Origin: an archaeon
Lineage (GTDB): Archaea > EX4484-52 > B79-G9
Direction of reading: 5' to 3'
DNA length: 22,071 nucleotides
NCBI GenBank assembly: GCA_043813875.1
Contig: JBDRKP010000083.1
Span: 1 to 22,071, forward strand
Shown here piece after piece: positions 9,001-12,000 of the stretch (positions within the stretch are counted from its first letter, which is position 1; each line of letters opens with the position of its first letter). The position numbers were made by a program.

Positions 9001-12000
9001 CTTGTTATCTCGACGACGTCGCCGATTTTTGCCTTGAGGGTTTCGAGAGCAGGGTCTGTGTCAAGTATTTTTGGAAGCTGGTCCAGTGTGACCTTGAGTT
9101 CTTTTAGAATTTTGGTTGATTCCTCTTTTGTCATTATCCTGTGTTCTGGAACCAGTTTATGTATTATTGTTTCTGTGTTGTTTTCGTTTTCTGCCATGTT
9201 GTTTTCACCACATTTTTGGTGGGCCTGACGGGATTTTCTCGTACGTTCATGGTTTTGAACGTTCGCTTTGAACCCGCGACACCCGGGTATCTTCTACAGA
9301 TTCCGGTGCATTAACCGTCTGGTTAAAAGCTTCACCCTCGTCGATTAAGAGCCCGGTGCTCTAGCCAGACTGAGCTACAGGCCCACTCCTTGTGTGTTTG
9401 AAAATTGAGATTACTCTATTCTCAGGATAATTTTATAAATGTATCTATGTCTGAGTGATTTTGCTTGATGTTGCTAGAATTTATTGCTTTATATGACCCA
9501 CACATGTTACTTTGCTCCGATATGATTATGATATGTTGATATCTGTTGTTGATATTTGATGGTAGTTGGGTATCATTTGAGAATATTAACCGGTCCATTT
9601 TAACAGACATAAATTGTTCTATTTGAATTTATATACGATTAGATTTTTTAGTATGCTTAAGTTTATAAATGTTTTGATGGGTGAAGAGTGGTAATGGTGT
9701 TGGTGGGATTAAGCGTCCCACATTATTTTTTAGTTCGTATTTATGTGTTCGGATATCGTCTTTATGTCTTTGGCGTTCTTGCTGTGCTTATTTCTGTATT
9801 GCTCTATTGTTCTTGTGATGATTTCGCTTGCTGATGTGAATCTGTTTTTTTCAATGAGGTATATGAGGACGGATGTTATGAGGACGCTTGAGAATATACC
9901 GCCGCCGACGATGTTTGTGAATACGGCGTCTGCCTGTATCACTGCGAGCATGACTGTCGGTGTCAGGCCTTTTGCGCACATGGCATCAAGGAAGTATGTG
10001 TCTTTGTCTTCGATGTCGTTGTTGCCGATTTTGTTTCTGGTGAGGGATCTTGCAAGGTATGCTATGAGGAAGAAGCCGAGCCCATAAAGGAGGTATGTCC
10101 ATTGGGTGAAGTCGACGAGGATGCCGAGGTAGAAGAACAGGAATGTGCGGATGAGGAAGCTTATGTCTTTGAAGAAGTGTTTTGTCTCCAGGCCGATGAG
10201 TGAGACGCTTTCTTTCTGTTCTTTGTAGAGGAGTTTGCTCCATATGGTGACGTTTCCAAGCATTATGGAGAAGAAGAAGACTGTTATGACTCCGTTTGCT
10301 TTTACGTATTCGGCGAAGGCGTAGAGTGTGACGAGGACTGCCATTGTGGCGATGGGGGCGCTTGAGTATTCGCCTACGTGCTTTAGGATGAATGCCCATA
10401 TCATCGCGACGACAAGGCCTATGCCGAGGCTTAGGAAGAGGTAGCTTGTGAGGCTTTGTGTAACTTCATTGAATGTCATTGTGGAGAAGTTGATTATGGA
10501 GAGTATGCCGACGATCACGAGGATGTCGATTATTGCGCTTTCGGTCTGGATCTGGGCTTCGGCTTTTGCGCTTAGCCTGATTGTCTCGAGGATGCTGTTT
10601 ATGATGGAGCCGTCAAGGACGCAGAAGAGGGCGCCAAGAGAGAATGCGAGTATCCATCTGAAGCCGAGAAAGTAGTGGGAGATTGCGCCGAGGACTGCTG
10701 TTATCAGTATGAAGTTGATGAGTGATGATGCGAAGGCGTATTTCATCGTCGAGAAGAGGGCTCTTAGCTTTATCGGGAGTGCGCCGTAGAATACGACGTA
10801 GATAAGGCTGAATATTATGAGGAATGTTATCTCTTCGCTTGTCGTTTTCATGCTTCCTGCGATGCCGAGGTGGGAGAAGAGAGCGCCTGCGGCGATGAGT
10901 ATGAGGACGTCGGGGATCTTTGTTTTTTTGAAGTTGTATTGCGCAAGGAGACCCAGGATGATGACTATGCCCACTATGAATAAGCTGCCTGTCGTGTCCA
11001 TTTTTGAACCTGGATTGATTTTTTGGTGTTTTTCAGTTTATATGTTGTATTATATTGTCTAAAAGTGTTATTATAGTTTTTTGTGGGGTTTTGATGATTT
11101 TGGGTGAAAAACCTGAAAGCGTTTTTGTTATTTACGCAGTCCGCGTACCTTAGTTTTCCATCCTTTGCAGGCATTTTCAAACCGTGACAAATTGTCACGA
11201 GTTGCGGCTCTCTTTGCTTTAGTTTCCTCCAGTATGCCAGTTCATCAATGCTGTCTGTAAGGACTGCGATGATGTCTGTTACAGAATAGTGCCATTCGCC
11301 GTCGTGCCAGAGTCTTCTGATTTTCTTGTCCTGAAATACAGTAAAAGTCATAACTTTTTCATGCCACTTACGTGCCAAGCTTTCGAAGACTGCGTCTTTA
11401 AAATAGACTAATGACTTTTCCATATAATTGACGTCTATTGGTTTATTGGCGGTATTTGTCCAGATAGTAACGACGTCAACTATAGTATTAGAGAGTTATC
11501 TTTATTTTCCGTCATTGAATCCCTCGATGATTTTTATTGTATATAAAGTATAGAATCTCCAAGGTATGTTTCTTATGGAAAAAGTCTAACATATATATCA
11601 GTCAGGTATATGTTTTTTTGTAGCCACAAAATATAAGAATACTTGTCGATAGTATTTCTACTGGTGAATTTGGTGGTGTTCATATTTAAGCCTTTTGAGA
11701 TTAGATTGTTAAAGGTGGGCAGGGTTATGAAGCATATAACTAAGACTGCTGGTAAACTTTATTCTAAATCAAAGCTCTACTTAAAGAATGATGATTTCGC
11801 GGATTGTAAGTATGAGTTATATGATATGGGGAGAGTTCATTTGCATGAATGCGATGGGCATGTTAAGGGTAGAGCGATGCTTATTTTTGTTCCGGATAAG
11901 CCCAGACATAAAAAGGATATCAGAATGTAGATTCATTGAAATTTGGGAGCGACAGCGACCTTTCTTGTCTCTTCGGGTTAAACCGCACTGATTTGGTTGG

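Follow-up and report, generated by a model that had tools for sequence, protein, structure and literature searches.

A single archaeal tRNA-Lys gene with two anticodon cassettes may supply both lysine isoacceptors by alternative splicing

The 22,071-nt stretch of archaeal DNA analyzed here (hereafter, the window) carries on its minus strand a tRNA-Lys gene of 165 nt (9220..9384), in which gene nucleotide n lies at window position 9385-n. The host is a small DPANN-type archaeon. In its unspliced form the gene scores 42.8 bits against the Rfam tRNA model and aligns with all of it (1-71/71), with two large inserts; ARAGORN, run on the unspliced genomic sequence, misses it. Read directly, the 5' exon (9353..9384, minus strand; gene nt 1-32) comprises the acceptor 5' strand, the D-arm, position 26, and CCGG (nt 29-32), the first four bases of the anticodon-stem 5' strand. 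The anticodon-stem 3' strand is CCCGG (9283..9287, minus strand; nt 98-102). Direct reading of the 3' exon end (9217..9233, minus strand) gives the last T-loop base, the T-stem 3' strand, the acceptor 3' strand, and the discriminator A (9220), followed by an encoded CCA at 9219-9217. An A/T-rich stretch, TTTATAAAA, at 9431..9439 (minus strand), 47-55 nt upstream of the gene, may be its single archaeal TATA-type promoter element.

Introns occur at three positions, 30/31, 37/38, and 59/60. The last is a 33-nt T-loop intron (9234..9266, minus strand; gene nt 119-151), whose bulge-helix-bulge (BHB) motif has three of four pairs in the central helix H (UUCA/AGAA), 3/3 in outer helix h and 2/3 in outer helix h'; the same type of boundary is found in about 15 other tRNA genes of the genome studied (G000). 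The two remaining introns surround the feature that sets this gene apart. Between the two stem strands lie two successive anticodon-loop cassettes: cassette 1 (9345..9352, minus strand; gene nt 33-40) consists of G33 plus CUCUUAA, with anticodon CUU, and cassette 2 (9323..9330, minus strand; nt 55-62) of G55 plus CUUUUAA, with anticodon UUU. G33 would occupy tRNA position 31, and G55 takes that position once intron 1 is gone. The first-pass annotation had described two cassettes between a single 5' and a single 3' stem strand, together with a T-loop intron, and direct reading confirms this anatomy. The heptamer GCACCGG recurs at gene nt 26-32 and 76-82, which we judge to be a chance match, and intron 1 resembles the T-arm (CGAGGGU).

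Each cassette, after its respective excision, fits a 7-nt loop closed by a 5-bp stem and presenting CUU or UUU. When 30 genes were spliced in silico, ARAGORN called a cloverleaf tRNA-Lys in all 60 products, tRNA-Lys(ctt) in 30/30 and tRNA-Lys(ttt) in 30/30; both products of G000 span [1,75], the 75 nt predicted once 57 and 33 nt are taken out of the 165-nt gene. Both anticodon arms are also found as ordinary Lys genes of other archaea. Conservation was assessed on a newly made alignment (A1) of the 18 distinct two-cassette gene sequences, from 10 genera. The stem strands CCGG+G and CCCGG pair 5/5 in all 18, the 3' strand is invariant, and so are the majority of columns in the 5' exon. Within the cassettes, G33-A39 and G55-A61 are invariant, as had been claimed on an earlier alignment; nt 40 is A in 18/18, and nt 62 is A in 14/18 and G in 4/18. 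Outside the cassettes, the introns differ in both length and sequence. Repeated 8-mer pairs also occur elsewhere among the tRNA genes of G000, so a repeated 8-mer within one gene is not by itself beyond chance; it is the position, invariance, and distribution of the cassettes that make them more than chance. No second cassette pair was found in the 40 other listed tRNA genes of G000, nor any cassette-type paralogue of its Gln, Thr, Val, and Arg genes.

The distribution follows family lines. BLAST across the 42 genomes of the phylum, with the loci read by eye, places the two-cassette gene in 29 of the 32 genomes of seven families (f1-f4 and f6-f8), one of which (G005) holds two copies. It was not found in G013, G018, and G021 (59, 71, and 57% complete) or in any of the 10 genomes of family f5, eight of which carry separate CUU and UUU Lys genes and two of which carry one of the pair. 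The distribution first reported, 29/32 in seven families and 0/10 in f5, thus holds in the repeated search.

Intron 1 (9331..9352, minus strand; gene nt 33-54) lies at tRNA position 30/31, and its excision deletes cassette 1. A scan of all position pairs in the gene returns only one motif with H at 4/4 and both outer helices at 3/3, and it is the one that delimits this intron: central helix CACC/GGUG, bulges GGG and AAG, and outer helices GAG/CUU and CUC/GAG. On A1, 97.8% of 180 cells pair, compared to 32.9-72.2% when the partner is slid (slid controls overstate significance, here and below, because related sequences are not independent), and one pair changes in a compensatory manner, from A-U to G-C, in two sequences. 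The strict BHB, pairing rate, and compensatory change in the first-pass annotation are all reproduced by these figures. To that description the alignment adds a helix: the D-loop segment GUCUGG (9365..9370, minus strand; nt 15-20) is predicted to pair with CCAGAC (9317..9322, minus strand; nt 63-68), a conserved intron segment 3' of cassette 2, and so to extend the intron-1 fold. Of the 108 cells, 106 pair (98.1%, vs 18.5-40.7% slid), and an alternative partner for CCAGAC, UCUG (nt 85-88) within intron 2, pairs in 55.6% of cells of the same alignment; because the D-loop side never varies, the helix is without two-sided covariation. Intron 2 (9289..9323, minus strand; nt 62-96) lies at position 37/38 of cassette 2. 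All four pairs of its central helix, CUUU/GAAG, can form, one of them as G·U, and its h' is out of register, with 25/72 cells pairing in register beside cassette 2. By boundary motif, then, intron 1 is a strict BHB, the T-loop intron has H at 3/4, and intron 2 is relaxed, as is the alternative to it described next.

The alternative is a long intron (9289..9345, minus strand; gene nt 40-96, equivalently 41-97), whose excision keeps cassette 1 and gives anticodon CUU. It shares with intron 2 a 3' splice module (9288..9300, minus strand) composed of UCUGUA (the h' 3' strand), GAAG (the central helix 3' strand), and AUA (the 3' bulge), the last A of which is position 38; A93, G94, A95, and A97 of this module are invariant in A1. 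The h' 5' strand lies directly 3' of cassette 1 (9339..9344, minus strand; nt 41-46). In the exact BHB register, 56 of 72 cells of this helix pair across the 18 sequences (18-50% slid), the first three base pairs are all formed in 11/18 sequences (0-1/18 slid), and the exact offset is a 4/4 window in 10/18, while only seven such windows occur among the other approximately 810 scanned. At least three solutions to the pairing exist and differ by genus (UACG/UGUA, UACAG/CUGUA, [G/A]CAG/CUGU, UAACUC/GAGUGA), and in genus g6 both strands are 1 nt shorter, a matched change in length. The helix is interrupted in G000, where two of the first four bases pair, and weak in g12 and g13 (one to two of four). 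As far as comparative pairing can tell, the bases after cassette 1 give the CUU path an outer helix, a feature that the first-pass annotation did not contain.

The central helix of the CUU path is less regular. In the standard register it has three of four pairs, and C34 is paired in none of the 18 sequences, being opposed as C·A in 16 and C·U in two (one genus). A single A to G change would pair with both cassettes; it is absent in all 18 sequences. For comparison, a bona fide single-cassette Lys(CUU) gene (L049), read by eye, pairs CUCU/AGAG 4/4, and the reliably resolved introns of G000, which come from single-intron genes only, mostly have a 4/4 central helix. A shifted register, UCUU/AAGA, pairs in 70/72 cells and restores 4/4, with a 2x1 internal loop in place of each 3-nt bulge; one side of the CUU-path central helix is invariant, and none of its pairs therefore shows two-sided covariation. 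The earlier description of this path as relaxed holds for the mismatch, and the path gains support from the h' in register.

The genome encodes one splicing endonuclease gene, EndA (PF01974 at 96.3 bits and PF02778 at 46.8 bits within one ORF), and one ligase gene, RtcB (PF01139, 574 bits). EndA is a 237-aa ORF (L051:1474-2187, minus strand) that matches M. jannaschii 1a79 over residues 63-237 and fits the alpha4-type layout, in which the single subunit consists of one N-terminal domain and one catalytic domain. Compared with 1a79, seven additional residues lie between its catalytic Tyr and His; this insert aligns with inserts of 3iey (N. equitans) and 4fz2 (ARMAN-2), and in this EndA departs from strict-BHB alpha4 EndAs, which lack an extra loop of the type associated with broad specificity. 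The insert probably corresponds to the 'L3' loop of PMC5829648, a paper that links loop-bearing alpha4 EndAs of DPANN to disrupted tRNA genes; the ASL of ARMAN-2 EndA (Y160/K161, PMC12397907) is a different segment. That EndA here is a single alpha4-type protein had been noted before and stands, and the worry attached to it, that such an enzyme would accept strict BHB motifs only, is weakened by the aligned insert.

RNA folding predictions suggest how one transcript could present two substrates. Full-length predictions put the two folds described below between -5.4 and +4.1 kcal/mol apart, and within ±2.2 in 12/18 sequences; they are thus predicted to be about equally stable. Fold A would be the normal cloverleaf, in which CCGG+G33 pairs with CCCGG, cassette 1 serves as the anticodon loop, and the nucleotides 3' of this cassette pair with those preceding the 3' splice site; cuts flanking this BHB-like motif would excise nt 40-96 and yield anticodon CUU. 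In fold B the D-arm would open, its loop pairing with CCAGAC and the D-stem 3' strand with cassette 2, and CACC would pair with GGUG to form the strict BHB, leading to excision of nt 33-54 together with cassette 1. After loss of intron 1, the RNA would refold to a cloverleaf containing cassette 2, and nt 62-96 would be cut to give UUU. The T-loop intron would be excised in both paths. EndA and RtcB would thereby process the transcript in two mutually exclusive ways, to Lys(CUU) or Lys(UUU). Cutting of both folds in the cell, and the order of the steps, are presumed in this scheme; the balance of the folds would presumably set the CUU:UUU tRNA ratio, which temperature or a binding factor might tune.

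We consider it probable, with confidence that stops well short of certainty, that one tRNA-Lys transcript is alternatively spliced into both isoacceptors. The more specific model, in which the pre-tRNA is a two-state RNA with near-isoenergetic, exclusive folds that each form a different BHB and direct alternative splicing in cis, we place only a little above even. Alternative splicing was proposed in the first-pass annotation, and the anatomy, the strict BHB of intron 1, and the distribution on which it was built all stand; since both products are predicted ones, the proposal is strengthened and no more. It falls short of proof because the C34 mismatch is kept in 18/18 sequences and because one cassette genome (G035) has a separate Lys(CUU) gene.

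The competing explanation that survives best, unlikely in our view but a serious one, is that only tRNA-Lys(UUU) is made. Cassette 1 would then be left over from the event that gave rise to intron 1, kept as intron-1 structure or as a folding aid, and a modified U34 of the anticodon would read both AAA and AAG. In some bacteria a modified UUU tRNA reads both Lys codons on its own, and the UUU path begins with the sole strict BHB of the gene. The shared GAAG/AAAG fits CUUU 4/4 and mismatches C34 of cassette 1 throughout, and the intron-1 bulge and h' require G33 and C34-C36, which would account for part of cassette 1. It does not account for all of it: the intron-1 motif places U37-A39 in its hairpin loop and so gives no explanation for their invariance, and the same is true of A40. 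Equally unexplained are the register-exact helix beside cassette 1, with its several solutions and matched length changes, and the UA immediately preceding GAAG, which is conserved and which the UUU path leaves unpaired. Decoding demand also argues for a CUU tRNA, as family f5 retains a separate CUU gene and AAG makes up 44% of Lys codons (12,258/27,634 in 798 long ORFs). GAG stands at 46%, and Glu has a dedicated CUC gene.

A second possibility, which we regard as improbable, is that a Lys(CUU) gene exists elsewhere and has escaped detection, either missing from the assembly or too disrupted (split or permuted) to be recognized; decoding by cassette 1 would then be unnecessary. The completeness of G000 is 91.5%, and its census of about 41 tRNA genes is itself incomplete, with Gln(UUG), Thr(UGU/CGU), Val(CAC), and Arg(CCG) not found; within that census no other Lys gene was detectable, in agreement with the earlier statement that this is the only one. 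A candidate with a CUUUUAA loop at C15:276 proved to be coding sequence and no tRNA. Across the cassette genomes, BLAST with two Lys queries found no further Lys gene in 28 of 29, six of them 90-96% complete, while the same queries recover both genes of f5, whose 5' halves are 86-93% identical to them; 18 weaker matches were rejected as Arg, Tyr, Ile, or Ser/Met genes or as no tRNA at all. The exception is G035, where a separate Lys(CUU) gene lies on a 1045-nt contig. Apart from the 5' part of the tRNA, that contig has no counterpart in the congener G036 or in genus g10, and it may therefore be foreign. The caution that a second Lys gene might exist is eased by these searches for 28 genomes and borne out in one, and a hidden gene would still leave the conservation of cassette 1 unexplained. 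Spliced or short-intron forms were also sought in metagenome contigs by means of a gapped pattern. The nine loci returned include no cDNA of this lineage: eight lie on multi-kb contigs from other organisms, seven of these being ordinary Lys genes and the eighth (L110) a doubtful ARAGORN call, and the ninth is an intronless UUU gene (L111) nearly identical to the predicted mature tRNA of g10, g11, and g13.

The converse, that only tRNA-Lys(CUU) is made via the long intron, and that cassette 2 and the intron-1 motif serve as structural parts of the intron, is very improbable. Fold A is compatible with the cloverleaf, and RNAfold returns it as the minimum for 9 of 14 anticodon-region segments, but a CUU anticodon is unable to read AAA, 56% of Lys codons, and no other UUU gene was found in the searches above; the strict intron-1 BHB with its compensatory change, the D-loop extension, and the invariant cassette 2 would moreover be without purpose. 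That ARAGORN makes no call on the gene might suggest a pseudogene or an assembly artefact, a negligible prospect that the distribution refutes: 29 genomes, each assembled independently, share this architecture, and across them the functional parts stay invariant and the introns vary.

A tRNA gene is assumed to specify a single anticodon, and to our knowledge the only exceptions are trans-spliced split and tri-split tRNAs. The closest parallel is the tri-split tRNA-Gly of Caldivirga maquilingensis (Fujishima et al., 2009, outlined in PMC4033280), where BHB-type motifs link pieces with different anticodons to common 5' and 3' pieces, producing synonymous tRNAs, and where EndA and a ligase are presumed to act, as here. 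The tri-split pieces, as described there, are separate genes and transcripts joined in trans via complementary leaders, whereas the tRNA-Lys gene is one 165-nt unit with one apparent promoter, and the choice is proposed to be made by alternative folding. Likewise, in the split tRNA-Glu of Nanoarchaeum equitans two 5' halves use one 3' half (Randau et al., 2005, via PMC4033280), so that two isoacceptors have partly common coding sequence, but there separate halves are trans-spliced. The tRNA-Lys gene has no such separate loci: a BLAST search of G000 found no Lys pieces, 5' or 3', encoded apart from it, and the two cassettes have one 5' and one 3' part in common, both cassettes presumably being used.

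tRNA genes with several introns at non-canonical positions are described for Thermoproteales, ARMAN, and others (PMC4033280 and PMC5829648). They resemble this gene, with its three introns, in forming a BHB only after partial opening of the mature fold and in the association with an extra-loop endonuclease. In the cases known so far every intron is always excised and each gene gives one tRNA, whereas the two excisions proposed here exclude each other and change the anticodon. Closer in sequence are the separate Lys(CUU) and Lys(UUU) genes of family f5, whose acceptor, D-arm, and T-arm are nearly identical (86-93%, 5' half); these, unlike the cassette gene, are two genes with a single anticodon loop each and an anticodon arm without an intron. 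Full-text searches on alternative or dual-anticodon tRNA splicing, followed mostly at the level of abstracts, brought up nothing of this kind; in the accessible text of PMC13195033, 'intron' occurs 0 times and 'tRNA' twice.

Because standard tRNA finders miss the gene or report one anticodon, Lys decoding is mis-annotated in this phylum. The evolution of split and intron-containing tRNA genes is under debate, and the cassette gene bears on this as well: if our reading is true, it would be a cis intermediate between the two-gene and split-gene arrangements. BHB splicing would then be able to choose, beyond merely removing inserts, and the pre-tRNA would be a naturally occurring model for processing governed by a conformational switch in RNA. 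If confirmed by RNA, this would be the first tRNA from alternative splicing of one transcript, and alternative cis-splicing would be a new way to encode a tRNA set.

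The tRNA-Lys gene occupies 165 nt of the minus strand (window 9384–9220; gene nucleotide n equals 9385 minus the window coordinate). The Rfam tRNA model spans the whole gene (42.8 bits) and leaves two large insertions, and ARAGORN makes no call on the unspliced gene. Along the minus strand, the acceptor 5′ strand (nt 1–7), D-arm (nt 10–27), A28 and CCGG (nt 29–32) lead into cassette 1, G33 plus CUCUUAA (nt 34–40), which carries the CUU anticodon loop. A 14-nt spacer separates it from cassette 2, G55 plus CUUUUAA (nt 56–62), with the UUU loop; a 35-nt stretch with the 3′ end UCUGUA-GAAG-AUA follows, then CCCGG (nt 98–102), the variable loop and T-stem, a 33-nt T-loop intron (nt 119–151), and discriminator A with an encoded CCA. 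The two-cassette gene with T-loop intron described in the first-pass annotation was thus seen on direct reading. Cutting out nt 40–96 in silico leaves anticodon CUU, and cutting out nt 33–54 and nt 62–96 leaves UUU; with the T-loop intron also removed, ARAGORN calls tRNA-Lys(ctt) and tRNA-Lys(ttt), 75 nt each, and it makes a Lys call on 60/60 such products from all 30 gene copies collected. We consider that one pre-tRNA is probably spliced alternatively into both lysine isoacceptors.

The 30 copies comprise 18 distinct anticodon-region sequences. In our own alignment of these (A1), G33–A39 and G55–A61 are invariant and nt 40 is always A, while the spacer (10–37 nt) and intron 2 (28–43 nt) vary in length and sequence, which upholds the reported invariance of the cassettes amid variable introns. 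For an intron after nt X, the bulge-helix-bulge (BHB) motif pairs X-5 to X-2 with the four bases that precede the final two of the intron, and has a 3-nt bulge on each side of this central helix; the ordinary Ile(GAU) gene of this genome fits this geometry 4/4. In a scan of every position pair in the Lys gene, a single motif combined a 4/4 central helix with two 3/3 outer helices: intron 33–54, with central helix CACC/GGUG, bulges GGG and AAG, and outer helices GAG/CUU and CUC/GAG. On A1 the motif pairs in 97.8% of 180 cells, as against 32.9–72.2% when the partner is slid by 1–3 positions, and two sequences of genus g13 share one compensatory change, A-U to G-C; these figures reproduce those first given. 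The first step of the UUU path is well supported.

The CUU path had been credited with only a relaxed motif. In the standard register of the long intron, the outer helix is the anticodon stem (5/5 paired in 18/18 sequences), the central helix sets CUCU against GAAG, and the bulges are UAA and AUA. Three of the four central positions pair; C34 is paired in 0/18, being opposite A (16 sequences) or U (two), and to this extent the description stands. It does not extend to the other outer helix, h′, which our analysis newly suggests that the CUU path possesses: the bases directly 3′ of the 5′ bulge are complementary to those directly 5′ of GAAG, in exact BHB register. Counted free of the alignment, from positions fixed relative to the cassette and to CCCGG, h′ pairs in 56/72 cells (18–50% on slides of 1–3 nt), and its first three pairs are complete in 11/18 sequences (0–1 when slid). 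The exact offset gives a 4/4 window in 10/18 sequences, and the other ~810 intron windows hold just seven. The genera reach h′ by different sequences: UACG/UGUA in g2, g3 and g5; UACAG/CUGUA in g11, with 4/5 of these pairs kept in g10; GCAG or ACAG with CUGU in g6, each strand one base shorter; UAACUC/GAGUGA (5/6 pairs) in g4; and UCG/UGA in three g1 genomes. It is broken by two bases in the genome under study and four other g1 genomes, and is weak in g12 and g13 (1–2 of 4 pairs). The bases following cassette 2 pair in BHB register in just 25/72 cells; the CAGA there pairs one or two bases off register, except in g6. The UA directly 5′ of GAAG finds partners in the CUU path and none in the UUU path. 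Moving the register by one base (intron 41–97, product unchanged) pairs UCUU/AAGA in 70/72 cells; this is the register that RNAfold picks, with a 2x1 internal loop in place of each 3-nt bulge.

Full-length folding with the intron-1 helix enforced pairs D-loop GUCUGG (nt 15–20) with CCAGAC (nt 63–68), a conserved segment directly 3′ of cassette 2, and AGAG (nt 23–26) with CUUU of cassette 2. The intron-1 fold is thereby predicted to extend beyond its BHB, a feature new in the present analysis. The D-loop helix pairs in 106/108 cells of A1 (18.5–40.7% slid), as against 55.6% for an alternative CAGA partner within intron 2. Since the D-loop side never varies, this reads as conserved complementarity, not covariation; the pairing accounts for the conservation of CCAGAC within an otherwise variable intron. 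Two folds are proposed: Fold A, a cloverleaf with cassette 1 as anticodon loop, and Fold B, in which the D-arm would open and intron 1 would be presented. Both draw on nt 15–33, and they are mutually exclusive. Fold A is the unconstrained minimum for the anticodon-region segment in 9 of 14 sequences folded. The energy gap between the best full-length structures with either fold runs from -5.4 to +4.1 kcal/mol (≤2.2 kcal/mol in 12/18 sequences); these predictions are rough, and we take them to mean just that neither fold is excluded.

The genome under study (1.64 Mb, 90 contigs, 91.5% complete) yields 25 tRNA genes with Infernal, 27 with ARAGORN allowing introns, and ~41 after added acceptor/T-arm pair scans. 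An anticodon-arm scan for Lys, with or without an intron, found no gene beyond the cassette gene, and BLAST of the gene halves found no paralogue; both agree with the claim of a single detected Lys gene. Gln(UUG), Thr(UGU/CGU), Val(CAC) and Arg(CCG) genes were not found either, so the census is incomplete and this genome alone proves little. Across the 42 genomes of the phylum, BLAST and locus reading gave the same counts as first reported: the two-cassette gene is in 29/32 genomes of families f1–f4 and f6–f8, with a second copy in one (G005), was not found in G013, G018 and G021 (59, 71 and 57% complete), and is in 0/10 genomes of f5. Family f5 has ordinary separate Lys(CUU) and Lys(UUU) genes, both in 8/10 genomes; G028 (75% complete) has just the CUU gene and G029 (85%) just the UUU gene. 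The f5 CUU gene often has a T-loop intron of 100–170 nt; among the f5 loci L030–L046, those of the separate CUU genes of genus g8 contain conserved hairpins, and the UUU gene of G027 bears the same long intron. BLAST with two different Lys queries found no further Lys-like gene in 28/29 cassette genomes; the 18 weaker matches retrieved proved to be Arg, Tyr, Ile or Ser/Met genes or no tRNA. The exception, G035, adds a separate Lys(CUU) gene on a 1045-nt contig (C147; L049/L053); its canonical intron has a 4/4 central helix, CUCU/AGAG, and its T-loop intron is ~125 nt long. In the congener G036 and in genus g10 nothing matches this contig except over the 5′ part of the tRNA, and the contig may be foreign. 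In 185,579 species genomes, a gapped cassette-pair pattern hits 28 loci, most of them in records titled as DPANN-type MAGs and two under other submitter labels. A 4404-nt metagenome contig (L111) carries an intronless tRNA-Lys(UUU) gene that matches almost exactly the mature UUU product predicted for g10, g11 and g13, with a single difference seen, in the T-loop.

Several observations support the CUU path: its loop bases are invariant though the intron-1 motif does not constrain them, its helix lies in exact register, the gene's distribution complements that of f5, and another Lys gene is absent from nearly all cassette genomes. Against this path count the mismatch opposite C34, retained though a single A-to-G substitution would suit both cassettes, the weakness of h′ in two genera, and the extra gene in G035. 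Production of tRNA-Lys(UUU) alone we think unlikely. Less likely again is a separate Lys(CUU) gene present but undetected, which the incomplete census would allow and the survey of relatives argues against. Everything else shares the remainder.

Standard finders detect just 25–27 of the ~41 tRNA genes of this genome. In about 15, position 59/60 is interrupted by a T-loop intron, always with the boundary GGUUCRAA ... GAAAAUCC. At C12:19442–19655, outside the window, the T-loop end and the T-stem and acceptor 3′ strands of tRNA-Ser(UGA) recur directly after the gene as an orphan 3′ piece, preceded by a hairpin and with 15 shared or near-identical 8-mers. Contig C42 (22641–22774 and 33048–33299) holds an ARAGORN tRNA-Ile with anticodon UAU and a tRNA-Trp gene whose ~170-nt intron has C/D-box-like UGAUGA...CUGA elements; C62:6115–6212 is a second GCA (Cys) gene with the acceptor stem of the Leu genes and an intron motif that lacks h′. 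An ordinary intronless tRNA-Thr(GGU) (64.3 bits) lies 2.6 kb from the Lys gene (window 12010–12082, minus strand).

The genome encodes one RtcB and one EndA, the latter with PF02778 and PF01974 in a single 237-aa ORF. Compared with M. jannaschii EndA (1a79), the stretch from the catalytic Tyr to the catalytic His is lengthened by a 7-residue insert, which phmmer aligns with those found in the enzymes of N. equitans (3iey) and ARMAN-2 (4fz2). As described in PMC5829648, DPANN loop-bearing alpha4 EndAs accompany heavily disrupted tRNA genes, and substrate range depends least on the type of subunit; we infer that the insert is the ‘L3’ loop of that study, and it is a segment distinct from the ARMAN-specific loop (Y160/K161) of PMC12397907. 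The genome itself demands more than strict BHB motifs: in Lys and Asn the central helix of the T-loop intron pairs just 3/4, and the intron motif of one Cys-type gene lacks h′. AAG makes up 44% of Lys codons (798 long ORFs) and GAG 46% of Glu codons; for Glu, the anticodons UUC and CUC have a gene each.

Full-text literature searches, read mostly as titles and abstracts, turned up no pre-tRNA that is cis-spliced into two isoacceptors. As described in PMC4033280, one 3′ half serves two 5′ halves in N. equitans tRNA-Glu, and anticodon-bearing pieces are swapped in the tri-split tRNAs of C. maquilingensis. The present gene would have in common with these the known machinery and the logic of shared pieces; there, separate transcripts are spliced in trans, whereas here the pieces lie within one gene and RNA folding would choose between them.
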